A model generated the notes under the pieces. It saw nothing but the letters and a program-made list of their open reading frames with translations. It searched no databases and was not told the DNA's origin. From Bacillota bacterium (GTDB taxonomy: Bacteria; Bacillota; Clostridia; Christensenellales; UMGS416): DNA of 64,000 nucleotides. A program made the position numbers and the translations under genes. Every line of letters begins with the position of its first letter. Within the stretch, counting starts at the first letter, position 1. Of this stretch, positions 4,662 to 64,000 are shown in pieces. The stretch spans positions 11,493 through 75,492 of the forward strand of contig JAEEJN010000059.1 in the NCBI GenBank assembly GCA_016281935.1, read 5' to 3'.

Positions 4662-5945
4662 ATGAGCGAATACAGATTTGAGACGCTCCAGCTGCACGTC
4701 GGACAGGAAGAAGCGGATCCCGCAACGGACGCCCGCGCAGTACCGATCTATCAGACGACATCCTACGTCTTCCACAACAGCAAGCACGCCGCGGATCGTT
4801 TCGGTCTGGCCGACGCCGGGAACATCTACGGAAGACTGACCAACTCCACGCAGGAAGTCCTGGAAAAGAGGCTTGCGGCCCTCGAGGGAGGGACCGCCGC
4901 CCTGGCGCTCGCGTCCGGCGCGGCCGCCATCACCTACACGATCGAAGCCCTGGCCGCGAACGGGGGACACGTCGTCGCGCAGAAGACGATCTACGGCGGC
5001 AGCTACAATCTGCTGGCCCATACGCTTCCCCAGTACGGGATCAAGACGACGTTCGTGGATGCCCACGATCTTGCCGAGATCGAATCCGCCATCCGGGACG
5101 ATACGAGAGCGGTCTATCTCGAGACCCTCGGAAACCCGAACAGCGATATCCCGGATATCGACGCTGTCTCTGAGATCGCCCACAGGCACGGGATCCCCGT
5201 TGTCGTGGACAACACCTTCGGCACGCCCTACCTGATCCGTCCCTTCGAACACGGCGCGGACATCGTCGTACACTCCGCCACCAAGTTCATCGGCGGCCAC
5301 GGCACGACCCTGGGCGGGATCATCGTGGAATCCGGAAAGTTCGACTGGAGCCGGAGCGGGAAATATCCCAACATCGCCGCACCGAATCCCAGCTATCACG
5401 GGATCTCCTTCTATGACGCGGTCGGCCCCGCCGCTTTTGTGACCTACATCCGGGCCATCCTCCTGCGCGACACCGGCGCCTGCATCTCCCCCTTCAACGC
5501 ATTCCTGCTGCTGCAGGGCGTGGAGACCCTCTCCCTGCGTCTCGACCGGCATGCGGAAAACACGAAGAAAGTCGTGGAATACCTCGCAAAGCATCCGCAG
5601 GTCGAAAAGGTCAACCACCCCTCCCTGCCGGATCATCCGGATCACGCTCTTTATGAAAGGTATTTCCCCAAGGGCGGCGCCTCTATCTTCACGTTCGACA
5701 TCAAGGGCGGACAGGAGGAAGCCTGGAAGTTCATCGACAGCCTGAAGATCTTCTCGCTTCTCGCCAACGTAGCGGACGTGAAGAGCCTCGTGATCCATCC
5801 CGCCTCCACCACCCATTCCCAGCTCAGCGAAGAAGAACTGCTGGATCAGGGCATCCGTCCCGGAACGATCCGGCTCTCCATCGGAACCGAGCACATCGAC
5901 GACATCCTTGCGGATCTGGAGAACGCGTTTGCCTCCGTCCGCTGA
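4662..5945 (+). CDS. metY: O-acetylhomoserine sulfhydrylase (aminocarboxypropyltransferase)
   Basis: 427 aa. Cys/Met-metabolism PLP enzyme blocks, with [10 protein letters not shown] holding the PLP lysine and N-terminal [10 protein letters not shown]. Confidence 0.9.
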
Positions 5946-5967
5946 ACGCAAAGAAAGGAAAAAAACC

Positions 5968-6903
5968 ATGTCAAAGATCTACAAAGGCACACTGGGACTC
6001 ATCGGGAACACTCCTCTCGTGGAAGTCGCGAACATCGAAAAGGAACTGGGGCTGGAAGCCACGGTGATCGTCAAACTGGAATACTTCAATCCCGCCGGCA
6101 GCGTGAAGGACCGTATCGCCAAGGCCATGATCGAAGACGCGGAGGCCAAAGGTCTGCTGAAGGAAGGTTCCGTCATCATCGAGCCCACGTCGGGCAATAC
6201 CGGTATCGGCCTTGCCGCGATCGCCGCAGCGAAAGGCTACCGCATCATCCTGACGATGCCCGAGACCATGAGCGTCGAACGCAGGAACATCCTGAAGGCC
6301 TACGGCGCCGAGATTGTCCTGACGGAAGGCGCAAAGGGCATGAAAGGCGCCATAGCTAAAGCGGAGGAACTCGTCAAGGAGATCCCGAACGGATTCATTC
6401 CCGGTCAGTTCGTGAACCCTGCCAATCCGGCCATCCATAAGGCCACCACGGGTCCCGAGATCTGGAACGACACCGACGGCACTGTGGATATCTTCATCGC
6501 GGGCGTAGGGACCGGAGGCACGGTCACGGGCGTCGGCGAATACCTCAAGGAGAAGAACCCGAACGTACAGATCGTCGCGCTGGAACCGGAAGACTCCCCC
6601 GTCCTTTCCGAAGGCAGGAGCGGAGCCCATAAGATCCAGGGCATCGGCGCAGGCTTCGTTCCGGACGTCCTGGACACCAAAGTCTATGACGAAGTCATCC
6701 GGGTCTCCAACGAAGACTCCTTCCGTACGGCCAGACTCCTCGCGCACAAGGAAGGCATCTCTGTGGGCATCTCTTCAGGCGCCGCCCTGTTCGGCGCGAT
6801 CTCACTGGCAAAACGCCCGGAAAACAAGGGCAAGGTCATTGTAGCTCTGCTTGCAGACAGCGGCGACCGCTACTACTCTACGCCCCTGTTCACGCAGGAC
6901 TGA
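5968..6903 (+). CDS. cysK: Cysteine synthase A (O-acetylserine sulfhydrylase)
   Basis: Start moved to ATG 5968 (MSKIYKG...; GAAAGGAAAAAAACC upstream). Motifs SVKDR and TSGNTGIG. 311 aa. Confidence 0.9.
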
Positions 6904-53688: not shown

Positions 53689-54873
53689 TCAGGCTTCGTA
53701 AGCCATCCGGAGCACTTCGAGATAGTCTTCCTTTGTCATCGGACGAGGATTGCTCTCGGTGGAAATGTTCTTCGCGGACATCTCGGCGATCGTATCGAAA
53801 TCTTCCGTCTTCACGTTCAGGGAACGGAAATCGGGAAGTCCGACTGCGCGGCACAGTTCCTTGACGGCACTGACGGCTATCTGCGCGCCTTCGCGTGCGT
53901 CCGTGAAGAAGAATCCCATGGCCTGCGCGACCCGCGCGTACTTTTCGACGCAGTAATCCATATTGTATTCCATGACGTAGGGCAGGAAGATCGCGTTGCA
54001 CATACCGTGCGGAAGATCATACAGCCCGCCGAGGGACTCCGCGACACAGTGGACGGAGGCGACGTCGCTGTGACTGAAGGACATGCCGCCGAGCATGCTG
54101 CCCATGAGCATCGCGCTCCTTGCAGGCAGATCCGTTCCGTCTTTGACAGCCGTTTCCAGATTGTGGTAGATGAGCTCAATGGAATACAGAGCGAACGCAT
54201 CGGCGATCGGCTCCCCGCAGTTCGCGGTATAGCCTTCGATCGCATGGGTCAGCGCGTCGACGCCCGTGGAAGCCGTCACCATGGGCGGTACGGAGACCGT
54301 GAGTTCAGGATCGCAGAGCGCGAGCTTCGCCGCCGTGAAGGGACTCTTCACCGTCATCTTGTAGTGGTTCTCCGTATCCGTGATGACAGAAGAAAACGTC
54401 AGCTCGCTGCCTGTTCCGGAAGTCGTGGGGATGGCGATGAGCGGAAGCTGAGGCTTGGTCGCAGCCGTTTTCCCTTCATAGGGCTTGATCCTGTCCGCAC
54501 CATGGGCGAGCAGAACGCCGACAGCCTTCGCACAGTCGATCGGACTTCCTCCCCCGACGGCAATCAGCGAATCCACGCCGAATGCACGTGCCTGACAGGC
54601 ACACTCCTCACAGTTGGCGTCTTTGGGATTCGGTTCCACACCGCTGTAGACGATGCACTCATAACCGGCCGCTTCCACGAGTTTCCTCACCCTGTCCGCG
54701 ATGCCGGCTCTGACGATCCCCTCATCCGTAATGATGACAGGACGGGTGCATCCGATCCGTTTCATCTCTTCGGGCAGACGCGCCAGTACGCCCGGACCGT
54801 ATACGATCTCCGTCGGAAGCGTGAAACTGAAGGCATCCATGGGATTCGGATTCGAAAAATGATAAGGCTGCAT
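53689..54873 (-). CDS. Iron-containing alcohol dehydrogenase
   Basis: Start moved to ATG 54873 (AGAGGAGA RBS). GGGSPIDCAKA and His-rich metal site. 394 aa. Confidence 0.85.
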   Translation of the reverse strand: MQPYHFSNPNPMDAFSFTLPTEIVYGPGVLARLPEEMKRIGCTRPVIITDEGIVRAGIADRVRKLVEAAGYECIVYSGVEPNPKDANCEECACQARAFGVDSLIAVGGGSPIDCAKAVGVLLAHGADRIKPYEGKTAATKPQLPLIAIPTTSGTGSELTFSSVITDTENHYKMTVKSPFTAAKLALCDPELTVSVPPMVTASTGVDALTHAIEGYTANCGEPIADAFALYSIELIYHNLETAVKDGTDLPARSAMLMGSMLGGMSFSHSDVASVHCVAESLGGLYDLPHGMCNAIFLPYVMEYNMDYCVEKYARVAQAMGFFFTDAREGAQIAVSAVKELCRAVGLPDFRSLNVKTEDFDTIAEMSAKNISTESNPRPMTKEDYLEVLRMAYEA

Positions 54874-54969
54874 GGGGATCTCCTCTTTCTGTCCTTCGTG
54901 TGTGATCGGATCCGTTCCGCATATGCGGCGGTGACGGTTCACGTACTTCTTATCGAACTGAATACGTGT

Positions 54970-54998
54970 ATTATAATCATTGAACTGAATGAGTTCAA
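54970..54998 (-). promoter_or_regulatory. Putative promoter of the Fe-ADH gene
   Basis: Minus strand: TTGAAC, 17 nt, TATAAT. GAACTGAAT direct repeats lie at 54955-54963 and 54982-54990. Confidence 0.45.
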
Positions 54999-55099
54999 GG
55001 AGGAACGATCCATGTCCGACCAACAGCATCATTTCTTCAGGATCCGCACCGAAGCCGGAGAGTTTTCCCGCAGAACGGTGGAGACAGGAACACTGGGGC

Positions 55100-56191
55100 C
55101 TATTCGGACAGGAAGCCCAGTGTCATCAGCCATTCCACGATCTCTTCTCTTTCCGTTCCGATCTCAAAACGCTTTCCCTCATCCCAGTGAGCGTCCGGAG
55201 CCAGCGGATGGAGATTTTCAGCGCTCATTCCGAGGGGACTGGAATGGGAAGTGCAGAACGGAACGATCCTCTTCCCCGAAAGATCCACGGTCTCCAGGAA
55301 AGTATACAGGATCCTGGGAGCCTGACCATGCCAGATCGGATAGCCGATAAATACAGTGTCGTATCCGGCAGTATCCGGCAGGGTGCCCGCGATCTCCGGT
55401 CTGGCTTCCGGATCGTTCTGCTCCCTGTCTGCGCGGCAATCCGTATAATACCTGATATCTTCATCGGTATAGGGGATCTTCGCCCGGATCTCATACAGAT
55501 CCGCATCCAGTTCCTCTGCCGTGTATTCCGCAAGCGGCTTCGTATGGCCTGTGCAGGAAAAAAACACGACCAGCACTCTGCCGTTCTCCGCCGTCCGAGA
55601 TTCCGAGGACAGCGAGAAGGTCACTGTGACGTCTCCGGATCCGAGGATACTCTTCAGTTCCTCCTGAGACAAGCCCTGAACTTTTCCGAGGCGCGTGAAA
55701 CTCCAGCTGTTCACGTCGTAGTAGATCGTGATCTGGTTCCCCTGATAAAGGATCAGGTCGCCGGGTTCCGTCGTGACCGGCCCATCGTTCGTGGGAAGGT
55801 CCGTTCCGAGAGGGCCGACTTTTTCGAAGCTGCCGTAATCGTGCATCTCGACCGTCACGTCACCGCTCTCCAGAAGCACGAGAAACGCTTCCGCAGAAGA
55901 ATTCTCCGCCGCGAGGATCTGCAGCACGCTGCCGTTTACATGGGCATATATCATCTGTTCTCCATCCTCCGTCGTTTCAGGTCCGGGGGAAACCGTCTCC
56001 TCGGGCCCCGTCTCCCCCCGTTCTTCTTCCGCTGCGGATACAGGCATTTCCGGTACAGCCATCTCTGTCTGCTGCACAGTATCTTCAGTGCGCGCTGCTT
56101 CCCCTTTCCCGGCAGCGCTGCAGCCGGACAGCATGAGCAGGATCCAGCCCAATACGAATGCCGTGACACGGAAGATTCTACGATCGGTCAT
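55100..56191 (-). CDS. Lipoprotein: cyclophilin-like domain fused to flavodoxin domain
   Basis: Start moved to ATG 56191 (AAGGAGGAAAAGAA RBS). Lipobox LLMLSGC, Glu/Pro-rich linker, and a C-terminal half alignable to the flavodoxin at 57508-57978 (LYEIR..IPYT, FIGYPIW, IVPFCTS). 363 aa. Confidence 0.7.
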   Translation of the reverse strand: MTDRRIFRVTAFVLGWILLMLSGCSAAGKGEAARTEDTVQQTEMAVPEMPVSAAEEERGETGPEETVSPGPETTEDGEQMIYAHVNGSVLQILAAENSSAEAFLVLLESGDVTVEMHDYGSFEKVGPLGTDLPTNDGPVTTEPGDLILYQGNQITIYYDVNSWSFTRLGKVQGLSQEELKSILGSGDVTVTFSLSSESRTAENGRVLVVFFSCTGHTKPLAEYTAEELDADLYEIRAKIPYTDEDIRYYTDCRADREQNDPEARPEIAGTLPDTAGYDTVFIGYPIWHGQAPRILYTFLETVDLSGKRIVPFCTSHSSPLGMSAENLHPLAPDAHWDEGKRFEIGTEREEIVEWLMTLGFLSE

Positions 56192-56349
56192 TTCTTTTCC
56201 TCCTTGCTGAAACGGTACGAGATTCCGTCCTCTGTACCCAAAGCATATGGCAATTTTATCATATTGCAAATCACCCGGCTCTGCAAGCAGCATCCCGAGG
56301 AATGTCTGAAGCCGGCTCCACTTTTTTTGCAAACAGGCCGCAGAGGCTC

Positions 56350-56378
56350 TTGACAGTATATATCGCGTGCGATATAAT
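56350..56378 (+). promoter_or_regulatory. Putative promoter plus perfect palindromic operator of the MarR-gpx-flavodoxin operon
   Basis: TTGACA, 17 nt, TATAAT. TATATCGC-GT-GCGATATA (56359-56376) overlaps the spacer and -10. The core TCGCGTGCGA is repeated at 56391-56400. Confidence 0.55.
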
Positions 56379-56422
56379 ATACGCAACAAGTCGCGTGCGA
56401 CATGATGCACGCAGGAGGAAAC

Positions 56423-56881
56423 ATGAACGACAGATACGCGCCTCTGCGTCTCAAAAACCAGCTCTGCTTTCCGATCTATGCGGTCTCCAACATGATCACC
56501 CGGAAATACAAGCCCCTGCTGGATAAGCTGGACCTGACTTACACCCAGTACATCGTCATGATGGTCCTCTGGGAAGAGAAACAGGTCAATGAAAAGTTCC
56601 TGTGTGAAGCGCTCTGTCTGAAATCCAACACGGTCACCCCTCTCCTGCAGAAACTGCAGGCAAAAGGGTACATCGCGAAGAAGAAGGACAGCAGCGATGA
56701 ACGCAACCTCGTGATCTCACTCACGGAAGCGGGTGAAGAGCTCAAGGAGAAAGCCCTCTGTGTCCCGCAGAGCATCGCTCAGGAATTCCGCCTGACGCCC
56801 GAAGAAGCGTCCGCCCTGTATCAGATCCTGTACAAGATGCTCGATCAGGAATACGGCGCCTGCCTTCCCGATGCCGACTGA
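56423..56881 (+). CDS. MarR-family regulator, OhrR-like
   Basis: Start moved to ATG 56423 (AGGAGG 4 nt upstream). Blocks LKNQLCFPIY and LTYTQYIVMMVLWE. 152 aa. Confidence 0.8.
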   Translation: MNDRYAPLRLKNQLCFPIYAVSNMITRKYKPLLDKLDLTYTQYIVMMVLWEEKQVNEKFLCEALCLKSNTVTPLLQKLQAKGYIAKKKDSSDERNLVISLTEAGEELKEKALCVPQSIAQEFRLTPEEASALYQILYKMLDQEYGACLPDAD

Positions 56882-56954
56882 CTGCTCGAACCCGCTGTTT
56901 TCCAGGAAACAGAAACACAATATACGACATCACAATTGAGAAAAGGAGAAAAAC

Positions 56955-57497
56955 ATGATCTACGATTACAAAATCACAACCGGCACCGGAGAAGAACTGG
57001 ATCTCGCTTCTTACAAAGGCAAGGTCATCATGGTAGTGAACACCGCCACCGGCTGCGGATTCACACCCCAATACGCGCCGATCGAGCAGATGTACAAGGA
57101 TTACCACGAACAGGGTCTGGAGATCCTGGACATCCCCTGCAATCAGTTCGGAGCTCAGGCACCCGGCACGGACGAAGAGATCCACGAATTCTGCACGCTG
57201 CACTTCAACACTACATTCCCCCAGATGAAAAAAGCGGACGTCAACGGTGAGAACGCGCTCCCTCTCTACGGATACCTGAAGTCCCAGAAGGGTTTCGAAG
57301 GCTTCGGAAGAGGTCCCAAAGCGCTCATGATGAGCGGCTTCACTTCCGCCAACTCGAAGAAGAACGGATGGAGCCGGGACGATATCCAGTGGAACTTCAC
57401 GAAGTTCATCATCGACAGGAACGGGAACGTGGTCGCCCGGTTCGAACCCACCGCGGACATGGCAGACGTGGAAGCCTGCGTCAAAGCTCTTCTTTAA
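56955..57497 (+). CDS. gpx: Glutathione peroxidase (Cys-type)
   Basis: 180 aa. Blocks VNTATGCGFTPQY, PCNQFG and WNFTKF. Confidence 0.9.
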   Translation: MIYDYKITTGTGEELDLASYKGKVIMVVNTATGCGFTPQYAPIEQMYKDYHEQGLEILDIPCNQFGAQAPGTDEEIHEFCTLHFNTTFPQMKKADVNGENALPLYGYLKSQKGFEGFGRGPKALMMSGFTSANSKKNGWSRDDIQWNFTKFIIDRNGNVVARFEPTADMADVEACVKALL

Positions 57498-57507
57498 GGA
57501 GGCGCAC

Positions 57508-57978
57508 ATGAAAGCACTCGTAGCCTATTTCTCTGCCAGCGGCGTGACGGCCGCAGTGGCGAAGCGGCTGGCGGACGCTATCGGAGCCAAGCTCTATGAG
57601 ATCCGTCCCGAGATCCCCTATACCGCCGCAGATCTGGACTGGAGAAACAGCCAGTCCCGTTCCTCGGTCGAGATGAACGACAAAAACTGCCGTCCCGCTC
57701 TGGCTGATCTGGATGCTCCCGTCGCTGACTGCGACGTCATCTTCGTGGGATATCCCGTCTGGTGGTACCGTGAGCCTTCCGTCGTCGACAGCTTCCTGGC
57801 AGCCTATGATTTCACTGGAAAGACGATCGTTCCCTTCGCCACCTCAGGGAGCAGCGGCATCGGGACGGAGGCCCCTGCCCGCATGAAGGAGATCACGGGA
57901 GCGGAAGTCGGCGAAGGCAGACGTTTTTCCGCAGATGCCGGTGAAGCCGAACTGAAGGCCTGGGCCGAAAACGCATAA
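57508..57978 (+). CDS. Flavodoxin
   Basis: 156 aa. ALVAYFSASG start, plus VGYPVWW and IVPFATSGSSG. Confidence 0.8.
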   Translation: MKALVAYFSASGVTAAVAKRLADAIGAKLYEIRPEIPYTAADLDWRNSQSRSSVEMNDKNCRPALADLDAPVADCDVIFVGYPVWWYREPSVVDSFLAAYDFTGKTIVPFATSGSSGIGTEAPARMKEITGAEVGEGRRFSADAGEAELKAWAENA

Positions 57979-57997
57979 TCAGAAAGGTCTGATTCAC

Positions 57998-58411
57998 ATG
58001 AACGTCGCAGTCAGATATTATACGAAGACAGGAAACACGAAGCGCCTCGCGGAAGCCGTGGCCGAAGCCGTCGGCACGGAAGCATTCCCCATCAGCGTGC
58101 CCGTCAGTGAACCCGTCGATATTCTTTTCCTCGGGAATTCCTATTACGCTTTCAGCATCGATCCTGAAGTCAGGGATTTCGTCCGTTCGCTCGACAGTGA
58201 AAAAGTCGGATGCATCGTCAATTTCGGCTCAGCCGCCATGCTGAACTCTACCTGGAAGAAAGTCAAGGCGGAAGCGGATAAACTCGGCATCCGGATGGAC
58301 GAGCGCGAATTCCACTGCAAAGGCGAGTTCAAAGGGTTCCACAAAGGCAGGCCCAATGAGCAGGATCTCGCCGACGCGGCTGATTTCGCCAGATCCGTTA
58401 TCCAAGGATGA
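57998..58411 (+). CDS. Flavodoxin-like protein
   Basis: 137 aa. YYTKTGNTKRLAE phosphate-binding-loop-like start. Confidence 0.65.
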   Translation: MNVAVRYYTKTGNTKRLAEAVAEAVGTEAFPISVPVSEPVDILFLGNSYYAFSIDPEVRDFVRSLDSEKVGCIVNFGSAAMLNSTWKKVKAEADKLGIRMDEREFHCKGEFKGFHKGRPNEQDLADAADFARSVIQG

Positions 58412-58428
58412 TAGAGATGAAAAACAGA

Positions 58429-58460
58429 AGAGGCAGCTTTCATGCTGCCTCTGTTTTGTT
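58429..58460 (+). terminator. Terminator of the gpx-flavodoxin operon
   Basis: AGAGGCAGC-TTTCAT-GCTGCCTCT followed by GTTTTGTT. Confidence 0.7.
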
Positions 58461-58502
58461 GTGATCGGGGTTCGGTTTCACCATCACAGGGCCGTCCGGC
58501 AA

Positions 58503-59501
58503 TCAGTCTGCCAGATGGTATCCGTCCCTTGCGTGGCGCAGATCCGCCTCCATCTCCGCGGCGTCCGTCCATCCGGAAAAAGAGTGGCTGTAGGAGAATC
58601 CCTGCGTATACCCGAAATTGAACCCCATCAAGCTTCCGTAATCGGCCGTCAGAACGCCGTCCGCGGGGATCTTCAGGGATGCGTAGCGGCAGGCTTCATA
58701 GGTGGTGACGACTGTTCCGTCCTCACGTGTGACCTTCACCTCATACGTATCGTAAAGCACGTTGCGCTCGTATTCGTTCTCATCATCCGAAATGAACAGA
58801 TACATCCTGTACGGGGTCATCGTCATTTCCCGGGCAAACGATGAGGATACGATCTCATCCCAGTCTTCCCGGATGAGGCGTTCCGTATTGGCATGGATGG
58901 CTTCCAGGTTGTCCCCTTCCAGTTCACCCGTATGCAGGACCCAGGACGCAAGCCCTCCGACCGTGAAAACCTTCTCGGAAGGCTCAAAGCGCCAGCCGGC
59001 AGGTGCTTTTGCCGTCACCTTGACCGTATCGCCGTTGGAAAGGCCGCTCTGCGGCGTGACCTGGAAGCGGTGGGGATCTGCATACTCGGCGTTGCTGTCA
59101 GAAAACTGCAGTTCCGCCGCGCCTTCTCCCGACATGCCGGTTATCTTCAGATTCACGATCTCAAAGGGATCGACGGTCTGAGGAGAAATGAGCGAGTGCA
59201 TGGGAGTGTCCGGGATGAGCATGCAGAGAAGGAAGGATGCCGCGATCACGCCGATTGCGATGATCCATCCCATGAGTTTGCGTCTGCGCTGCCGCTTCAC
59301 CTGAAGGTCTTTGATATCCTCCTCGGCGCGTGCTTCCGCCATACGGCGCTCGTACTCTTTCCGGCCTGGATCATTCTTTTCGATGAGCATCACATGACCG
59401 CAGTAAGGACACTCGGCTTTTTCCCCGTCCTCCGTCAGCTTCATTTTCCCCCCGCAGGAAGGACAAATGAGTGACAGCGTCTTTACGTTCTCTTTATCCA
59501 T
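58503..59501 (-). CDS. Zinc-ribbon / single-pass membrane protein with extracytoplasmic domain
   Basis: 332 aa. CPSCGG...CPYCGH, then a basic stretch, a TM helix (GWIIAIGVIAASFLLCML) and a ~230-aa outside domain. GAGGAGAAA RBS. Confidence 0.55.
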   Translation of the reverse strand: MDKENVKTLSLICPSCGGKMKLTEDGEKAECPYCGHVMLIEKNDPGRKEYERRMAEARAEEDIKDLQVKRQRRRKLMGWIIAIGVIAASFLLCMLIPDTPMHSLISPQTVDPFEIVNLKITGMSGEGAAELQFSDSNAEYADPHRFQVTPQSGLSNGDTVKVTAKAPAGWRFEPSEKVFTVGGLASWVLHTGELEGDNLEAIHANTERLIREDWDEIVSSSFAREMTMTPYRMYLFISDDENEYERNVLYDTYEVKVTREDGTVVTTYEACRYASLKIPADGVLTADYGSLMGFNFGYTQGFSYSHSFSGWTDAAEMEADLRHARDGYHLAD

Positions 59502-59561
59502 GAGTCTGCATTTCTCCTCTCAAGGCCTGATTGTTACGGTGTGTTCGCTGATTTCCGTCCA

Positions 59562-59729
59562 TCACATACCGAAACGGATGTTTTTCACAGTCTTTTTCTC
59601 GATCTTCAGCCCCTCGTAGATCCGGGCCCCGCCGTTTCCGACCGGTGCCTGGGCCAGGAGTCCGACCTTGACCGTTTCTTCTGCCGGATCCTCCCTGTAA
59701 CGAGGCGCGATCATATTTCTTACTCTCAT
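59562..59729 (-). CDS. Unannotated 55-aa ORF directly downstream of the S24/S26 peptidase gene (candidate precursor peptide)
   Basis: Own translation: MRVRNMIAPRYREDPAEETVKVGLLAQAPVGNGGARIYEGLKIEKKTVKNIRFGM. AAGGTGA lies 5 nt before the ATG, 30 nt after the peptidase stop. Below the ORF-track length cutoff. Confidence 0.3.
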   Translation of the reverse strand: MRVRNMIAPRYREDPAEETVKVGLLAQAPVGNGGARIYEGLKIEKKTVKNIRFGM

Positions 59730-59758
59730 ATCGTCACCTTACCGCGGCAGAGCCGTCC

Positions 59759-60223
59759 TTATTTCACAGAGTGTTCCCGGCCGGCTCCTTGCCGATTCCT
59801 CTGCAGCCTGATCTTCAGCCAGAGAATGCCCGCACGGAGATAGAAAAAGTCACACCACAGATGCACGTACAGCCGATATCCCAGGTCGGTCACGGGGATC
59901 GTCTTCCCGTCGCGGATCACGGCAGTCATCACGCCGATCACATGTCGGTCCTTGATGCCGGTCTCCCGCCAGCAGCGGTTGTCTCCGCAGAGGACATAAT
60001 CGTCCTCGCGCACTTTCAGGACACGGTGCAGGACACAGGTCCCGTCATCCCGTCTGTACAGAGGCACATCGTATTTTTTCAGACGTCCTTCCGGCTTTCG
60101 GGAGATGACGAACACGTCTTTTCCCTGACGGAGCAGGGGCAGCATGCTGTCTCCCACGTTCGTATAGATCAGCTGTCCGTGCTTCTCGATCTCCTCTTCG
60201 AACGTGCTGCTTTCCTTATTCAT
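59759..60223 (-). CDS. S24/S26-family serine peptidase (LexA/signal-peptidase fold)
   Basis: 154 aa. GDSMLP catalytic-Ser motif, downstream HRVLKV (candidate general-base Lys), hydrophobic C-terminus. 8-nt overlap with the PqqD gene. Confidence 0.75.
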   Translation of the reverse strand: MNKESSTFEEEIEKHGQLIYTNVGDSMLPLLRQGKDVFVISRKPEGRLKKYDVPLYRRDDGTCVLHRVLKVREDDYVLCGDNRCWRETGIKDRHVIGVMTAVIRDGKTIPVTDLGYRLYVHLWCDFFYLRAGILWLKIRLQRNRQGAGREHSVK

Positions 60224-60476
60224 CCAGCAGTCCGATGCCTCTCAGCTTGGTAAGGATCGCTTCCACATCCTCCTCGATCACGTCTCTCGGGGCATCGTAT
60301 TTCTCAAGCATGGCATCCACGATCTTTTCTTTCGTGGTCTCTTCCTTCAGGCAATCCACGATGAAGGCAGCGGTCTCGTTGGAGCGGACCAGTCCGGAGA
60401 AGACGGCGCTGTCCGCGGATACCATGACCTGGGTATCCCCCATGACGTGTGTTACGGCCGAAGAATTCAGCTTCAT
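60216..60476 (-). CDS. PqqD-family protein (RiPP recognition element)
   Basis: 86 aa with the pattern ...LVRSNETAAFIVDCLKEETTKEKIVDAMLEKYDAP.DVIEEDVEAILTKLRGIGLL. Size and motif are typical of stand-alone PqqD/RRE. Confidence 0.8.
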   Translation of the reverse strand: MKLNSSAVTHVMGDTQVMVSADSAVFSGLVRSNETAAFIVDCLKEETTKEKIVDAMLEKYDAPRDVIEEDVEAILTKLRGIGLLDE

Positions 60477-61191
60477 GACATTTTCTTCCTTTCATTCATT
60501 CCGTTATAGGCGACCCAAGCCGCTTCCGGCTCGGTGTTGCACCACATCCGATATGTTTCCACGTTTTCACTGAGGTGTTCGATAAGCTCCAGCGTTTTTC
60601 CCAGAAGAAGCGGGTCCGAGGGACGGTGGCTCTGCCGGATCAGCATCGCCATGGCCATATCCTTCGGAAGCGGTTCAAGGCAATTGGTCTGACTCCGCTT
60701 CAGGATACAGACCGCTTTCAGGGGGACGGAAGCATTCGTGCTCAGATGATGTTTCCCATCCCAAGGCGATCCATACACTGCAACGCCCTTATCCGTGATC
60801 CTGAGGAACGGTTTATCGTCGTTGATATCATGGCGCGTTCACCGAAGGCTTCGCGCCAGAGCCGTGCATGGGTGCTTTTCCCGTATCTGCTGGACGCGGT
60901 GAACAGATAGGCTTCCTGATCCACGGCAATGGCAGATCCGTAGAAAAGGATCGTAGAGTCCCCGATCAGATAATCAGAAATCTTCCGGAGGACCGCAAGC
61001 GACTCAAGATAACCGGGAGAAAAATCCTGTGTCGGTTCCCGTTGAATCTCCTCATCGCTCACCGAGATCAGGATCTCCCCACAGTCTGGGATGATGTACT
61101 GTTGGCACTGTTCACGGACGTAATCACACCTGTTCAGGATGGTGAAGTCACGGCCAGTCTTACCGAAAACATGTTTTGTCTCTCCGATCGT
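60473..61191 (-). pseudogene. HprK-related kinase-like gene, disrupted (1-nt frameshift near 60826-60832; no clean start)
   Basis: Frame A: ...LFYGSAIAVDQEAYLFTASSRYGKSTHARLWREAFGERAMI (P-loop-like). It continues in another frame as INDDKPFLRITDKGVAVYGSPWDGKHHLSTNASVPLKAVCILKRS.... The open frame upstream reaches a TGA at 61192-61194 with no ATG. Confidence 0.55.
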
Positions 61192-61254
61192 TCAGCCGGC
61201 GCATAAACAGCACACAGCAGAATACAGGGCCGCATCCACGAAGGATACAGAGTA

Positions 61255-62367
61255 TCATTCTTTGCGGCTTCGGGTATCCCTCAGAGTTTTCGCCTCTTCC
61301 TGGAACCGGCCGAGTCTCACCGCACGGATAACACGGTAAAAGGGAAGAAACGGGAGCAGTATCCTGTATCTGTAGAACAGCGGATACTCCTCGGCGAAAG
61401 CCGCATACTCCGGATCCTTTCTGCTGAACGGTACACGGATCCGGCCCGCAAGATAACGGAGCCTGTTCCCTCCGTTCCTGCGCATCGTGTTCCGCACACG
61501 GTTCGGGATCGTACCGAAGGCGCCGGAAGACAGAAAATAGTCCAGCATCTCCCGATCGGAATCCGACAGCGTTTCACCTCCGAAGAGGCGGAGAGCAAGC
61601 GTACGGTTCTGTTCCTCGAAACTGCCGAGTCCCAGTTTTTCCGCTTCAGCCGCCACATAATCCATGTCGAGCCGGACCCTGTTCAGGTACACATACGTAT
61701 CCAGAAGTGACCTGAGCCCTGTGCCGCCGCCTTCGTAATGGCCGTGCTCATGGGCCAGGAAATACAGATAGAAATCCTCCGGCGTAAAGCTTCTCCCCCA
61801 TCCTTCTTCTCTGACCAGCCTGTCTCCGATATCCTTGTAATACGCCAGCTTCTTCTCCCCATGCGCTGCGGAGAAAAGCGCCGTATGCATCTCGAAATTC
61901 AGCACGGGGGCCTTGTAATACACATCATGGTTATGGACGCCGAATTCCACCGTTTCGAACCCCAGGGCTTCCATGATGGCTTTCACGTCATTTTCCCGGG
62001 CTGCGTCAAACAGGATGTCAAAATCCGCGAACTCCCGCATGCCGTACACCGGATACATGTCCTTCAGCACGGCGCCTTTCAAAGGCATATACCAGATCTC
62101 CGCATCTTCCAGCCGTTTTCGGATGCCGCTCCATGCGCTGTCAAAGATCATTGTTTTCCGGATGGAGGCGGAAACGGCGTCGAGGAATCGTCCGTCCTTC
62201 ACGCCTGCGTTTTCAAGCGCACAGCCCACAGCCACGGCGATCATATGCTCCGAGGCAAAGGAAAAGGCGGCATCCAGATCCATACCTTCCATCCTCGCGG
62301 CATCCGGTACGGTGCCGTTCACCGCGCAGGTGACGAGATAGATCACATCCGATGCCGTATCGCTCAT
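61255..62367 (-). CDS. Uncharacterised nucleotidyltransferase family protein (NTP_transf_5-like)
   Basis: 370 aa. Block MPLKGAVLKDMYPVYGMREFADFDILF is a G-x...D-x-D NTase-like core. ATGA overlap with the ABC gene. Confidence 0.7.
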   Translation of the reverse strand: MSDTASDVIYLVTCAVNGTVPDAARMEGMDLDAAFSFASEHMIAVAVGCALENAGVKDGRFLDAVSASIRKTMIFDSAWSGIRKRLEDAEIWYMPLKGAVLKDMYPVYGMREFADFDILFDAARENDVKAIMEALGFETVEFGVHNHDVYYKAPVLNFEMHTALFSAAHGEKKLAYYKDIGDRLVREEGWGRSFTPEDFYLYFLAHEHGHYEGGGTGLRSLLDTYVYLNRVRLDMDYVAAEAEKLGLGSFEEQNRTLALRLFGGETLSDSDREMLDYFLSSGAFGTIPNRVRNTMRRNGGNRLRYLAGRIRVPFSRKDPEYAAFAEEYPLFYRYRILLPFLPFYRVIRAVRLGRFQEEAKTLRDTRSRKE

Positions 62368-64000
62368 CTTTCCTTCACCCCGTCCTCCGAGAATTCCAGT
62401 ATCCTGTCGCAGATGGAAAGCGCCGCTTTCCTGTGCGTCACGATCACGACCGTCCTGTCGGTCATGCCGCGCAGGTTCTCCAGCAGCCGTTTTTCCGTCG
62501 CTTCGTCCAGCGCGCTTGTGGCTTCATCCAGGAGCAGGACCGGTGCGTCGGAATAGACGGCCCTGGCGATGGCCAGACGCTGCATCTGCCCTTCGGAGAG
62601 ACCGGATCCGCGTTCTCCCAGTTCCGCGTCTGCGTCCTCCACGAATTCATCCGCGCAGGCGATCTTCAGGGCCCGTTTCAGCCGTTCGTCGTCCTTCGGT
62701 TCCGCGAAACACACCGCGTCCCGGATCGTTCCGTTCATCAGGGCGTTTCCCTGAGGCACGTAGGCGAACAGGCGGCGGTGCACCGCGCTCAGTTCCTGTT
62801 CGTCAAGATATCGCTCTCCGCCGTCCAGCGGATACAGACACATCAGAAGCTTCAGCACGGTGCTTTTCCCGCAGCCGCTGTGTCCGGTAAAGGCGACGGT
62901 CTCGCCTTTGCGGATCTCCAGGTCCAGTCCGTCCAGCACGGCGGGCGTATCGCCGTCGTTCTGCGTCTTGTAGGAAAAGGATGCGTTCCGGAGTCCGAGA
63001 GACCGGAACTGTCCGTCGTAATACCTCCGCATGGTCAAGGAATCCGCGGGATCGCCGTCGTCCGGATAGCTCTCGGCCTCCATCAGCCTTTCGGCGCTTG
63101 CGGTCATGGCGTACCATCGGGGCAGATAACCGCTGATGCTTGCGAAGGGGCTCTGCACCTGGGTGATCAGCTGCATCACGGCAGTCAGCGTGCCGTAGGT
63201 AACGGTCCCCGTCATGATGCCGTAGGCGCAGTACACGACGCCGATCAGATACATGCCGTGCATGGCGGCCCCGAATCCGGTATTCGCCACATTGGAGAAC
63301 CGGGTCCTGCGCATCCGGGCAGCCTTATGCGCCGCCATCGCTTCTCCGGCCCCGATTCCTGCCTGTTTTTCTGCGGAGAACGCCTTGATGATCATGAGAT
63401 TGCTGATCCGTTCCTGCAGGAACACCCGCATTCTTCCGTCGCTCTCCTGCACGTTCTTATGGAGACGCTTGAGCACGCCCCGGAAGGCGTAGCTGAAAAC
63501 GACCATCAGAAGCCCGCCCGGGATCAGGATGCATGTGAACCACCGGTCCAGGACGATGAGCATGATCAGGGCTGAAAGCATCTGCACCACTGTGCCTGCC
63601 AGACCCGGCAGGATGTCGACGGCACCGTCCGCGACGACCGTCGTATCGCTCGTCAGGCGGTTCATCCATTCCGCGGTATGCGTGGCGCTGACGGAGGCAT
63701 AGTCCTTGCGCAGGATACAGTCCACGAGCCGCTGCTTGAATGCGTTCTCCAGGCTGCTTCTCGCCAGCTCATACATCCAGCGGATGAGGGCGTACACGGA
63801 CAGCATGAAAACAACGAGCCCCGCGATCAGGAGCACGTTGTTCCGAAAGGAAAGGACGTCACGGGCCACGGCGCTGTCCACGATGGCCCGGAACAGCAGC
63901 GCATACGCTACGCCGATGAGGCCGGACAGGCTCTGGAGTCCGGTCAGCGCCAGGATATATCCTTTTTTCCTGCCCGTCACACGCCAGAGCCAGTTCACAG
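62364..64000 (-). CDS. ABC exporter, fused permease/ATPase (5' end at or beyond the right edge)
   Basis: At least 544 aa. 6-TM exporter domain, Walker A GHSGCGKST, signature LSEGQMQR, Walker B LLLDEATSALD. The only in-window start is a GTG 3 nt from the edge. Confidence 0.85.
   Translation of the reverse strand, partial: VNWLWRVTGRKKGYILALTGLQSLSGLIGVAYALLFRAIVDSAVARDVLSFRNNVLLIAGLVVFMLSVYALIRWMYELARSSLENAFKQRLVDCILRKDYASVSATHTAEWMNRLTSDTTVVADGAVDILPGLAGTVVQMLSALIMLIVLDRWFTCILIPGGLLMVVFSYAFRGVLKRLHKNVQESDGRMRVFLQERISNLMIIKAFSAEKQAGIGAGEAMAAHKAARMRRTRFSNVANTGFGAAMHGMYLIGVVYCAYGIMTGTVTYGTLTAVMQLITQVQSPFASISGYLPRWYAMTASAERLMEAESYPDDGDPADSLTMRRYYDGQFRSLGLRNASFSYKTQNDGDTPAVLDGLDLEIRKGETVAFTGHSGCGKSTVLKLLMCLYPLDGGERYLDEQELSAVHRRLFAYVPQGNALMNGTIRDAVCFAEPKDDERLKRALKIACADEFVEDADAELGERGSGLSEGQMQRLAIARAVYSDAPVLLLDEATSALDEATEKRLLENLRGMTDRTVVIVTHRKAALSICDRILEFSEDGVKER

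Follow-up and report, generated by a model that had tools for sequence, protein, structure and literature searches.

The end of the window (the whole 64-kb stretch of DNA analysed here) probably carries, at a probability we put at about 0.7, a RiPP-type cassette in decay, of a kind common among rumen and gut Clostridia, the intact copies of which would make modified peptides. The genes for its ABC exporter, nucleotidyltransferase, PqqD-type RRE and peptidase look intact (Table 1). Having lost the precursor gene to a deletion and retaining the kinase-like gene only as a pseudogene, the locus alone should make no product, and it is probably a non-functional remnant; the linear, phosphorylated or nucleotidylated, exported peptide that the initial annotation predicted from it is thus not to be expected.

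Table 1 Features of the cassette region at the end of the window
Feature	Position	Strand	Evidence and remarks
ABC exporter	62364..63998	(-)	Pfam ABC_membrane 1.3e-25, ABC_tran 7.9e-26
NTP_transf_5 (PF14907) nucleotidyltransferase	61255..62367	(-)	apparently intact; Pfam 1.1e-33
Shortened spacer, deletion scar	61173..61254	(-)	site of the precursor gene and promoter region in L008
ScmC-family (PF27840), HprK/PEPCK-fold P-loop kinase-like pseudogene	60473..61172	(-)	three-frame translation, family HMM
PqqD-type RRE	60216..60476	(-)	looks intact; Pfam PqqD 8e-17
S26-type (Sec11/SipW-like, Ser/His/Asp) peptidase	59759..60223	(-)	presumed leader peptidase, looks intact; family alignment and profile
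Prolyl-tRNA synthetase (ProRS) 5' stump, ~16 codons	59682..59729	(-)	tblastn with the first 16 residues of the L008 ProRS: 81% identity, E 3e-5

The minus-strand genes of the initial annotation were found in their places, and the overlaps 62364-62367, 60473-60476 and 60216-60223 are exact; the nucleotidyltransferase gene and the pseudogene are, however, spaced by 82 nt, and therefore not all five genes are translationally coupled, as had been proposed. The identities given to the exporter, nucleotidyltransferase, RRE and S26-type peptidase mostly stood, whereas an intact HprK-like kinase and a peptidase of the Ser-Lys type did not. An HMM scan detected no further cassette genes elsewhere in the 64 kb.

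The ABC exporter consists of a fused membrane domain and ATPase, the C39 peptidase domain being absent, and retains 69 of the 69 columns conserved to at least 95% in its family alignment. The first ~5 codons of its gene probably lie past the window end, with the upstream region outside the window: the homologue from the related locus L008 starts MNNTVRWLWRV, compared with (V)NWLWRV here. The nucleotidyltransferase scores 117 bits with Pfam NTP_transf_5 (cut-off 31.2), contains the invariant motif G98...D115xD117 and departs from its family alignment in one of 48 conserved columns (K209G); its AF2 model (pLDDT 91) gave weak Foldseek matches, every one of them a Pol-beta-type nucleotidyltransferase, e.g. 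ANT(2'')-Ia and LnuA. The 86-residue protein previously taken for a PqqD-like RRE is confirmed as such by profile HMM (61.8 bits against the Pfam PqqD cut-off of 23.4), with no departures in the conserved columns of its family alignment; its nearest NCBIfam models are lasso B1 chaperones, both matched below their cut-offs (38.9 of 70 and 25.2 of 80 bits).

With regard to the peptidase, the single sequence stays below the cut-offs of both Pfam S24 (14.7 against 23.3 bits) and TIGR02228 (25.6 against 51.85), and significance is reached only with the family profile, which matches SEC11C (9e-6) and SEC11A (1.2e-5) with the SM.P, HRV and GDN boxes aligned. The invariants of the family alignment A5 are S26, M27, P29, D36, H66, R67, G80 and D81, without any invariant Lys; a Ser-Lys dyad is thus rejected in favour of the Sec11/SipW Ser/His type. 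Because the catalytic Ser is residue 26, there is no N-terminal membrane anchor and the enzyme is therefore presumably cytoplasmic.

The kinase-like gene, starting with the ATG at 61172, is broken across three frames by a 1-nt loss (-1) near 61151-61154 and a 2-nt 'AT' gain (+2) near 60825-60828, and the family HMM finds two fragments of it that join at model position 133. In the repaired translation, our own family alignments reveal a His-to-Tyr and a Walker-A Gly-to-Arg substitution at columns common to 36 of 36 homologues, two invariant-site changes that no other cassette gene of the window exhibits. The claimed HprK-like identity holds for intact relatives: the L008 homologue (234 aa; precomputed Pfam tag of the protein PF27840, ScmC) is intact, and its AF2 model (pLDDT 93.9) has HprK/P and ATP-PEPCK as best Foldseek matches (E about 1e-5). 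In the ScmC-like family the Walker A sequence, SGxGKSTH, is invariant, and there is also an NDDKP motif, comparable with the D158/D159 metal site of PsmK mutated in published work (PMC6993621).

Concerning the missing precursor, L008 is the sole syntenic relative and the only locus with the gene order of the window. DNA homology joins 63993-61304 with 2074-4763 of L008 and 61188-59832 with 5149-6508, the intervening part being 385 nt in L008 and 115 nt in the window. A 39-aa precursor ORF (4911-5030) lies inside the 385-nt interval, and, by this alignment, a segment of ~270 nt including the precursor gene is deleted in the window relative to L008. A leader HMM built for the family found no match over the whole 64 kb (best E = 5.2). 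The 55-aa ORF at 59562-59729 was rejected as a precursor: it opens with the prolyl-tRNA synthetase stump and lies outside the cassette. The gene following the peptidase in L008 encodes a proline-tRNA ligase (NF006625, 6.5e-47), the DNA homology ends ~50 nt inside it, and no other ProRS was found in the window.

It is unlikely that the locus is functional, with the frameshifts being assembly errors or bypassed and a precursor located upstream of 64000 or at another place in the genome. All conserved columns, or all but one, are indeed kept in four of the five genes, but the two substitutions at sites invariant in 36 homologues, including the Walker-A Gly, are confined to the kinase-like gene, and its two separate frameshifts differ in kind, the +2 'AT' not being a homopolymer error. 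In another assembly (GCA_016648395.1), a contig of 890 bp (L092) is 100% identical, the +2 frameshift included; it may derive from the same sample or a related one and would then be weaker as an independent confirmation. Near about half of the complete cassettes the leader HMM recognises no precursor, so that the absence of an adjacent one is not proof of inactivity, and orphan precursor genes occur kilobases from the cassettes in L064 and L066; the L008 precursor, however, sits precisely at the deletion of the window.

The decaying copy belongs to a family with a wide distribution among Clostridia of the rumen and gut. The nucleotidyltransferase profile retrieved 319 relatives from species-representative genomes and a further 377 from metagenomes, and 33 non-redundant loci have the ScmC-like, PqqD, S26-like peptidase and nucleotidyltransferase genes together in view (the ABC gene also in 22 of them). 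The gene set thus recurs across genomes, although the order ABC-NTase-kinase-PqqD-peptidase of the window is a rare permutation of the usual precursor-kinase-PqqD-peptidase-ABC-NTase. Neither an Asn-synthetase-like cyclase nor a transglutaminase-like B2 protease was found among ~170 related loci. Opposite-strand genes on either side delimit L047 and L091, the latter a self-contained operon of two precursors and four genes, and a known RiPP core enzyme is absent from both; the earlier statement that the operon has none holds for these, but not for the cassettes with a radical SAM/SPASM maturase (6 of 33). No paper characterising such a cassette was found in the literature, and the family seems to be a new RiPP variant, as yet uncharacterised, with its origin in the lasso clusters of Firmicutes.

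The precursors of the relatives, 27-65 aa long, share a lasso-like leader, …YExxxxEVIxFxxEDVITTS (in a fuller form K/E-Y-E-x-x-x-M/L-E-V-I-x-F-x-x-E-D-V-I-T-T-S), and end in a short core that varies; matches to the leader HMM numbered 62, in 38 of the loci L001-L091, and most of them adjoin a cassette. At the junction, Thr occupies position -2 and the core begins with Gly or Ala, as in lasso precursors (PMC10368454). The Cys-free cores are hypervariable, 4-25 aa long and rich in Pro, Gly, Asp and Glu. Only one of 22 ends in Ser, the C-terminal residue not being conserved, which contradicts C-terminal Ser phosphorylation as a general step; with Ser, Thr and Tyr all absent from 6 of the 22, the C-terminal-Ser model of paeninodin and pseudomycoidin is therefore not directly transferable. 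Among the loci checked, Cys-containing precursors occur solely together with a radical SAM/SPASM gene, and this maturase adjoins Cys-rich cores wherever precursors were recognised.

This bears on the rather improbable view that the window holds the tail of a radical SAM-dependent (ranthipeptide- or sactipeptide-like) cluster, its maturase and precursors lying just past 64000. In an NJ tree the sister clade of the window nucleotidyltransferase comes from cassettes that combine a radical SAM/SPASM maturase with Cys-rich precursors, and gene positions vary, as seen from L089 (radical SAM gene after the nucleotidyltransferase) and L127 (permuted order). In L008, however, an opposite-strand DUF624 gene and a GDSL lipase lie ahead of the ABC gene, and the precursor core is Cys-free; the HMM scan found no radical SAM/SPASM maturase of the relatives' type in the 64-kb window.

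Intact cassettes appear, by analogy, to make small modified secreted peptides from lasso-like parts without a lasso cyclase. A precursor with lasso-like leader and hypervariable core would be bound at its leader by the PqqD-type RRE; the ScmC-family HprK-fold kinase-like protein and the NTP_transf_5 nucleotidyltransferase would then modify the peptide, as with PsmK and PsmN, by adding a phosphate and building on it. Some lineages may add chemistry by a radical SAM/SPASM maturase, a second-type radical SAM, a methyltransferase-like protein or a glycosyltransferase. The S26 serine peptidase would cleave after the Thr-Ser junction and the ABC exporter would secrete the cleaved, modified product. 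All this chemistry is assigned by analogy, since no member has been studied.

A true lasso-peptide cluster with cyclase and B2 protease outside the window is very improbable: HprK-like kinase, NTP_transf_5, PqqD and ABC genes do accompany Firmicutes and rumen lasso clusters (PMC7533575; PMC6993621) and the leader is lasso-like, but the cyclase and B2 genes are lacking from all the related loci mentioned above and from the L008 upstream region, the B2 position is taken by the S26-type peptidase, and cores of 4-6 residues, e.g. GEEV and DPLGD, are unable to form a lasso. Least probable of all is a system without peptide product, in which the kinase-like protein and nucleotidyltransferase modify an envelope glycopolymer or protein and the ABC protein is a flippase: NTP_transf_5 homologues (43-48% identity) also stand alone in glycosyltransferase-rich clusters, the enzyme therefore not being RiPP-specific, and the PsmN product is a hexose on phosphate (PMC6993621), but several observations speak against it: tight linkage, in overlapping frames, with a PqqD RRE and a peptidase of the leader type; small neighbouring genes that combine a conserved leader with a hypervariable tail; and the co-occurrence of Cys-rich tails with radical SAM/SPASM maturases.

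Among known systems, the cassette shares with the phosphorylated lasso-peptide clusters of Firmicutes, paeninodin (pade) and pseudomycoidin (psm)—the latter comprising C, A, K, B1, B2, N and D, with N an uncharacterised nucleotidyltransferase—the HprK-fold kinase (K), PqqD RRE (B1), nucleotidyltransferase (N) and ABC exporter (D), a similar local order A-K-B1-protease-D/N, the Thr at -2 with a Gly/Ala core start, and an RRE nearest to lasso B1 models. It differs in having no Asn-synthetase-like cyclase, a Sec11/SipW-type peptidase instead of the transglutaminase-like B2 protease, cores down to 4 residues without a consistent ring acceptor and with C-terminal Ser rare, and a distant kinase-like protein (ScmC, HprK_rel_A and HprK models all at E about 0.01).

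As in radical SAM/SPASM thioether RiPPs (ranthipeptides and sactipeptides; TIGR04463, Clo7bot, PapB-type), sister cassettes have such a maturase, adjoining the same RRE, and Cys-rich cores behind the same leader, whereas the window, L008 and a large cassette clade lack the radical SAM gene, the cores of that clade being Cys-free. To our knowledge, kinase-like, nucleotidyltransferase and S26 peptidase genes are not parts of described ranthipeptide or sactipeptide clusters. SynChlorMet (ScmC, TIGR04249/PF27840) and HPr-rel-A (TIGR04352, TIGR04353), both defined computationally only, likewise link an HprK-like P-loop protein to a PqqD-family chaperone; they differ in hosts and partner genes, the cassette having no ScmE/ScmF radical SAM pairs, and its proteins score far below the NCBIfam equivalog cut-offs (kinase-like protein 16-22 bits against 125 for ScmC and 15-18 against 200 for HprK_rel_A; 19 bits against 35 for the PqqD model).

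The peptidase, finally, differs from the ER/archaeal-type signal peptidases I (Sec11, SipW) in lacking the N-terminal membrane anchor, in the overlap of its gene with the RRE frame and in scoring below the family cut-offs. It weakly matches (E 0.003-0.035) the NCBIfam model of the Ni-SOD maturation protease, an S26-type enzyme removing a short N-terminal propeptide, and it shares with Sec11 and SipW the invariant SM.P, HR and GDN catalytic boxes and a presumed cut after a small residue (Ser at -1).

The cassette closing the window comprises genes for an ABC exporter, an NTP_transf_5 nucleotidyltransferase (NTase), a kinase-like protein, a PqqD-type RRE and a peptidase. The three overlaps between the minus-strand reading frames are exactly those listed in the initial annotation, and the identities proposed there for the ABC, NTP_transf_5 and PqqD proteins are backed by Pfam, the 86-aa protein taken for a PqqD/RRE giving a clear match. 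The GTG listed as the start of the ABC gene lies 3 nt from the window end, approximately five codons being missing in comparison with its homologue. This cassette belongs to an uncharacterised family that represents a variant of RRE-dependent RiPP biosynthesis; the locus in the window is a remnant, without precursor and without kinase.

Cassette genes and neighbouring features in the window
Feature	Coordinates	Strand	Remark
ABC exporter	62364-63998	minus	Pfam ~1e-25
NTP_transf_5 protein	61255-62367	minus	Pfam 1.1e-33
Kinase-like (ScmC/HprK-fold) pseudogene	61172-60473	minus	reading frame changes twice
PqqD-like protein	60216-60476	minus	Pfam PqqD 8e-17
Peptidase-like protein, 154 aa	59759-60223	minus	S24/S26-like, weak single-sequence scores
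ProRS stump	59682-59729	minus	within ORF 59562-59729
Zinc-ribbon membrane protein, 332 aa	58503-59501	minus	now follows the ProRS stump
Perfect 9-bp GC-rich hairpin	58429-58452		T-runs on both strands
Flavodoxin-like protein	57998-58411		by eye from translation
Flavodoxin-like protein	57508-57978		by eye from translation
Glutathione-peroxidase-like protein	56955-57497		by eye from translation
MarR-like regulator	56402-56881		by eye from translation
Iron alcohol dehydrogenase-like protein	53689-55032		by eye from translation

Concerning the kinase-like gene, it opens with ATG at 61172 (MFSVRLA), loses 1 nt near 61151-61154 and so passes into a second frame, and gains 2 nt ("AT") near 60825-60828, passing into a third; the two fragments matched by a custom family HMM meet at model position 133. 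In the repaired translation, the His of the LFHGS motif is replaced by Tyr and a Gly of the Walker A SGxGKST by Arg, both in columns common to 36 of 36 homologues; the conserved columns are all kept in the PqqD, peptidase and ABC proteins of the window, the NTase departing at one of 48. A short contig from another assembly (GCA_016648395.1, JAEEGF010030713.1, 890 bp), the sole one obtained with the window PqqD protein as query, is 100% identical to window positions 60046-60935, the +2 frameshift included. Given the two frameshifts, the changes at invariant sites and the identical frameshift in the second contig, the kinase-like gene in the window is a real pseudogene.

The HprK-like kinase of the initial annotation thus stands as a fold, but not as an intact gene. 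In the model of the intact protein from L008—the only locus syntenic with the window among those collected by the NTase searches—predicted by AlphaFold with a pLDDT of 93.9, none but HprK/P and ATP-dependent PEPCK are among the top Foldseek matches (E ~1e-5, probability 1.0), and the alignment of intact relatives exhibits an invariant Walker A SGxGKSTH and an NDDKP motif, so that the name is right at the fold level. The Asp-Asp pair of the latter motif can be compared with D158/D159, the site that was mutated in PsmK, the kinase of the pseudomycoidin lasso cluster (PMC6993621). It should be pointed out that only the fold search settles the HprK-type fold, because the sequence profile of the family is not significant against the PDB (PEPCK 0.11, HprK 0.7). 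The relatives, which make up more than 1,500 clusters at 90% identity, carry the precomputed Pfam tag PF27840 (ScmC). The NCBIfam models of ScmC, HprK-related kinase A and HprK match at E ~0.01, and both the two fragments and the intact L008 protein gave nothing or E ~0.01 with NCBIfam and a copy of Pfam without PF27840. The equivalog cut-offs were not reached either for ScmC (15.8-22 bits vs 125) and HprK_rel_A (15-18 vs 200) or for PqqD_rel_X (19.3 vs 35).

A small ORF travelling with the cassette, which the initial annotation proposed to look for, does exist in the relatives: adjoining the kinase-like gene are short ORFs with the leader M-E-K-Y-E-x-L/P-x-M/L-E-V-I-x-F-x-x-E-D-V-I-T-T-S followed by a short variable tail, for which the leader HMM gave 62 matches in 38 of the loci L001-L091, Pfam and NCBIfam yielding nothing or only E ~0.01. 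Among the loci checked, Cys is present in the precursors adjoining radical SAM/SPASM genes and absent from those of loci that have no such gene. Cys-free tails could be separated from the leader in 22 cases; their length is 4-25 residues, with a median of 10, and Gly, Pro, Asp and Glu abound in them. At the junction, position -2 is Thr, -1 is Ser and +1 is in most cases Gly or Ala, which resembles the penultimate Thr rule of lasso precursors (PMC10368454). Precursor genes also come in tandem, three to five of them with a common leader and different cores, in L085 (685-1336), in L095 and, between the kinase-like and radical SAM genes, in L012/L014.

Across the whole 64-kb window, the leader HMM finds no precursor (best E 5.2). 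Between the NTase and kinase-like genes of L008 there is a 39-aa precursor gene that has a ribosome-binding site and encodes a Cys-free core; because the 385 nt of L008 around it correspond to 115 nt in the window, the precursor gene has been deleted in the latter. The 55-aa ORF beginning MRVRNMIAPRYREDPAE was considered as a precursor and rejected, being the 5' stump of a prolyl-tRNA synthetase (ProRS) gene. In L008, the gene after the peptidase encodes a ProRS beginning MRIQNLIAPRYREDPAN, its end cut by the contig end; the homology of the window to L008 ends approximately 50 nt into this gene, and no other ProRS is found in the window. ProRS as a part of the cassette, e.g. an immunity gene, was also rejected: in 158 loci it adjoins the cassette only in L008, lying ~5 kb away in L049, and it is thus a flanking gene rather than a cassette part. 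With the stump, a second rearrangement breakpoint becomes visible at the locus, where either the ProRS copy was lost or the cassette arrived with a piece of its neighbour. Just after the zinc-ribbon membrane protein gene there is a hairpin that looks like a bidirectional terminator; scanning 58400-64000 for promoters and terminators gave nothing informative. Further away, the stretch 55100-58411 looks like a redox/oxidative-stress neighbourhood unrelated to the cassette.

With regard to the peptidase, the window sequence alone scores below the cut-offs of both Pfam S24 (E 0.026) and TIGR02228, the archaeal-type signal peptidase I (E 9e-6; 25.6 bits vs 51.85), and reaches 19.6 bits vs 190 for SipW. 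In the family of 29 sequences, Ser26, His66 and Asp81 are invariant in the SM.P, HR and GDN boxes, and the family profile matches human SEC11C and SEC11A at ~1e-5 with these three boxes aligned. The initial annotation had seen here a Ser-Lys enzyme; there is, however, no invariant Lys, and the cassette peptidase is of the Sec11/SipW (Ser/His) type. The window protein starts MNKESSTFEEEIEKHGQ and its catalytic Ser is already residue 26; there is therefore no N-terminal hydrophobic segment or membrane anchor. With Ser, a small residue, at -1, the precursor junction suits cleavage of the signal-peptidase type.

The NTase exceeds the gathering threshold of NTP_transf_5 (PF14907) with 117.3 bits vs 31.2, and its G...DxD motif (G98, D115 and D117) is invariant. 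The Foldseek matches of its model (pLDDT 91) are weak, all of them being Pol-beta-type nucleotidyltransferases, including ANT(2'')-Ia; PsmN, the nucleotidyltransferase of the pseudomycoidin cluster, was described as an "uncharacterized NTP transferase" of limited similarity to ANT(2'') (PMC6993621), a weak likeness that the window protein shares. The best NCBIfam matches of the RRE are lasso-specific models, both below the cut-off (38.9 of 70 and 25.2 of 80 bits). NTP_transf_5 homologues of 43-56% identity also occur without the other cassette genes, in L055, L067, L076, L083, L096, L111, L124 and L133; their neighbours are glycosyltransferases by Pfam in L055 and L067, this reading coming from our own gene maps for the other lone loci. 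This hints at a family acting on sugar/phosphate chemistry in general.

The homologues of the NTase are many (45-62% identity), the profile scan giving 319 matches in species-representative genomes and 377 in metagenomes. The genome records are mostly Clostridia MAGs (Oscillospiraceae, Lachnospiraceae, Ruminococcus), mostly from the ruminant gut, several of them with more than one NTase copy; two or three separate cassettes were seen in several MAGs. Single-sequence NTase scans of genome and metagenome contigs found no close relatives, and the alignment-based ones nothing closer to the window than ~62% identity. When the neighbour genes were labelled with HMMs derived from these same loci, 33 non-redundant loci had the whole set of kinase-like, PqqD, peptidase and NTase genes in view, accompanied by an ABC gene in 22, a radical SAM/SPASM maturase in six and a recognisable precursor in 18. 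As for whether the five-gene order is conserved, a check proposed in the initial annotation, the gene set does recur, usually as precursor, kinase-like, (radical SAM), PqqD, peptidase, ABC and NTase, and the order kinase-PqqD-peptidase is retained in nearly all four-gene loci; the arrangement of the window—ABC, NTase, kinase-like, PqqD, peptidase—is, however, a permutation common only to L008, the DNA of which is 72-77% identical. A clean minimal cassette is that of L091, in which opposite-strand flanks enclose two precursors and the four core genes, ABC and radical SAM genes both being absent.

The initial annotation had also pointed to the lack of a lasso cyclase and a B2 protease. No Asn-synthetase-like cyclase was found in the window up to 64000, and the gene maps of ~170 related loci contain no Asn-synthetase-like or transglutaminase-like gene; ten large unlabelled neighbour proteins checked by Pfam belong to unrelated families, and upstream of the ABC gene L008 encodes a DUF624 protein and a GDSL lipase. 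The absence of radical SAM was equally borne out, the family HMM having no match in the 64 kb of the window; a radical SAM/SPASM gene and a Cys-containing core are present in the sister cassettes L001, L004, L009, L010 and others. Optional extras comprise a radical SAM protein of a second kind (367-370 aa), a methyltransferase-like protein (222-229 aa) and glycosyltransferases. The former, with a CNLDCKMCYV motif and unrelated to the first, is encoded between the kinase-like and PqqD genes in L024 (6661-7773), L027 (537-1640) and L034 (1489-2592), and it is present also in L106 and L115; since the leader HMM finds no precursor in such loci, they may have a different precursor family. The latter, with a SAM-methyltransferase-like DVGCGKGR motif, has its gene inserted between that of the peptidase and the cassette gene that follows (ABC or NTase) in L048 (7600-8268), L050 (9082-9765) and L060 (731-1420), and was seen also in L042 and L084.

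In an intact cassette, by analogy, the leader would be bound by the PqqD-type RRE and the peptide modified by the kinase-like protein and the NTase, while the S26-type peptidase would cut after Thr-Ser and the ABC transporter would export the product. All the cores share their termini or, should cleavage occur elsewhere, the junction Thr/Ser. We tentatively propose, at a probability of roughly 0.3, that the intact cassette represents a new lasso-derived RiPP class, defined by its S26B-type peptidase, HprK-fold kinase and NTP_transf_5 protein, in which activation of a terminus would yield short Pro/Gly-rich peptides, derivatised at the C-terminus or cyclised head to tail, as signals or antimicrobials in the rumen. 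The lasso-type leader and RRE would have been retained, and the kinase and NTP_transf_5 pair may activate the core terminus by phosphorylation or nucleotidylation, since only the N-terminus and the C-terminal carboxylate are common to all of the hypervariable cores.

The initial annotation was thus largely right in what it observed, except for the broken kinase-like gene, and its interpretation is valid at the level of the gene family, though not for the window locus, for which the predicted product lapses together with the precursor and the kinase. As a remnant, this locus is a poor choice for expression; it is an intact member that is worth experimental work, and such cassettes are abundant, with hundreds of loci matched by the NTase profile in Clostridia of the rumen and gut, frequently several in the same genome. 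Knowing the product would reveal how HprK-fold kinases and NTP_transf_5 proteins act on peptides in non-lasso pathways, how an enzyme of the signal-peptidase type became a leader peptidase, and the role of a large set of small secreted rumen peptides. In agreement with the initial annotation, no characterised member was found in open-access text, where we met with no paper on a cyclase-less cassette, nor with a description of it under ScmC, PF14907, SynChlorMet or S24 with RiPP; in the Hungate1000 survey (2026), the generic antiSMASH "RRE-containing" clusters are the second most frequent type of BGC, not characterised (PMC13289728).

Neighbour-joining of the NTases pairs the window with L008, and the sister group of this pair is a clade of radical SAM/SPASM cassettes, the cassettes without radical SAM forming a separate large clade. 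It is probable that the radical SAM gene was lost in the window/L008 lineage or had at no time been part of the operon there. From among the known systems, the cassette is like the paeninodin/pseudomycoidin-type lasso clusters of Firmicutes in gene content and local order, but it differs from them in having no cyclase and in the S26 peptidase replacing the B2 protease; by this analogy, we read it as a putative derivative of such clusters. As accessory genes, rumen lasso clusters are reported to carry those for HPr kinase, PqqD and a nucleotidyltransferase that is uncharacterised (PMC7533575). The HprK fold with Walker A and the Asp-Asp site, typical of kinases of the PadeK (paeninodin)/PsmK type, is found in the intact relatives as well, and many of these share the Thr at -2 of lasso precursors, whereas the Asp/Glu at ring position 7-9 is not consistent in them, some cores being as short as 4-6 residues or without a suitably placed acid. 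In pseudomycoidin, PsmK/PsmN account for the phosphorylation of a C-terminal Ser and then the addition of a hexose onto the phosphate (PMC6993621); this scheme does not transfer directly to the cassette, because a C-terminal Ser is present in only one of the 22 Cys-free cores, and six of these cores lack Ser, Thr and Tyr altogether.
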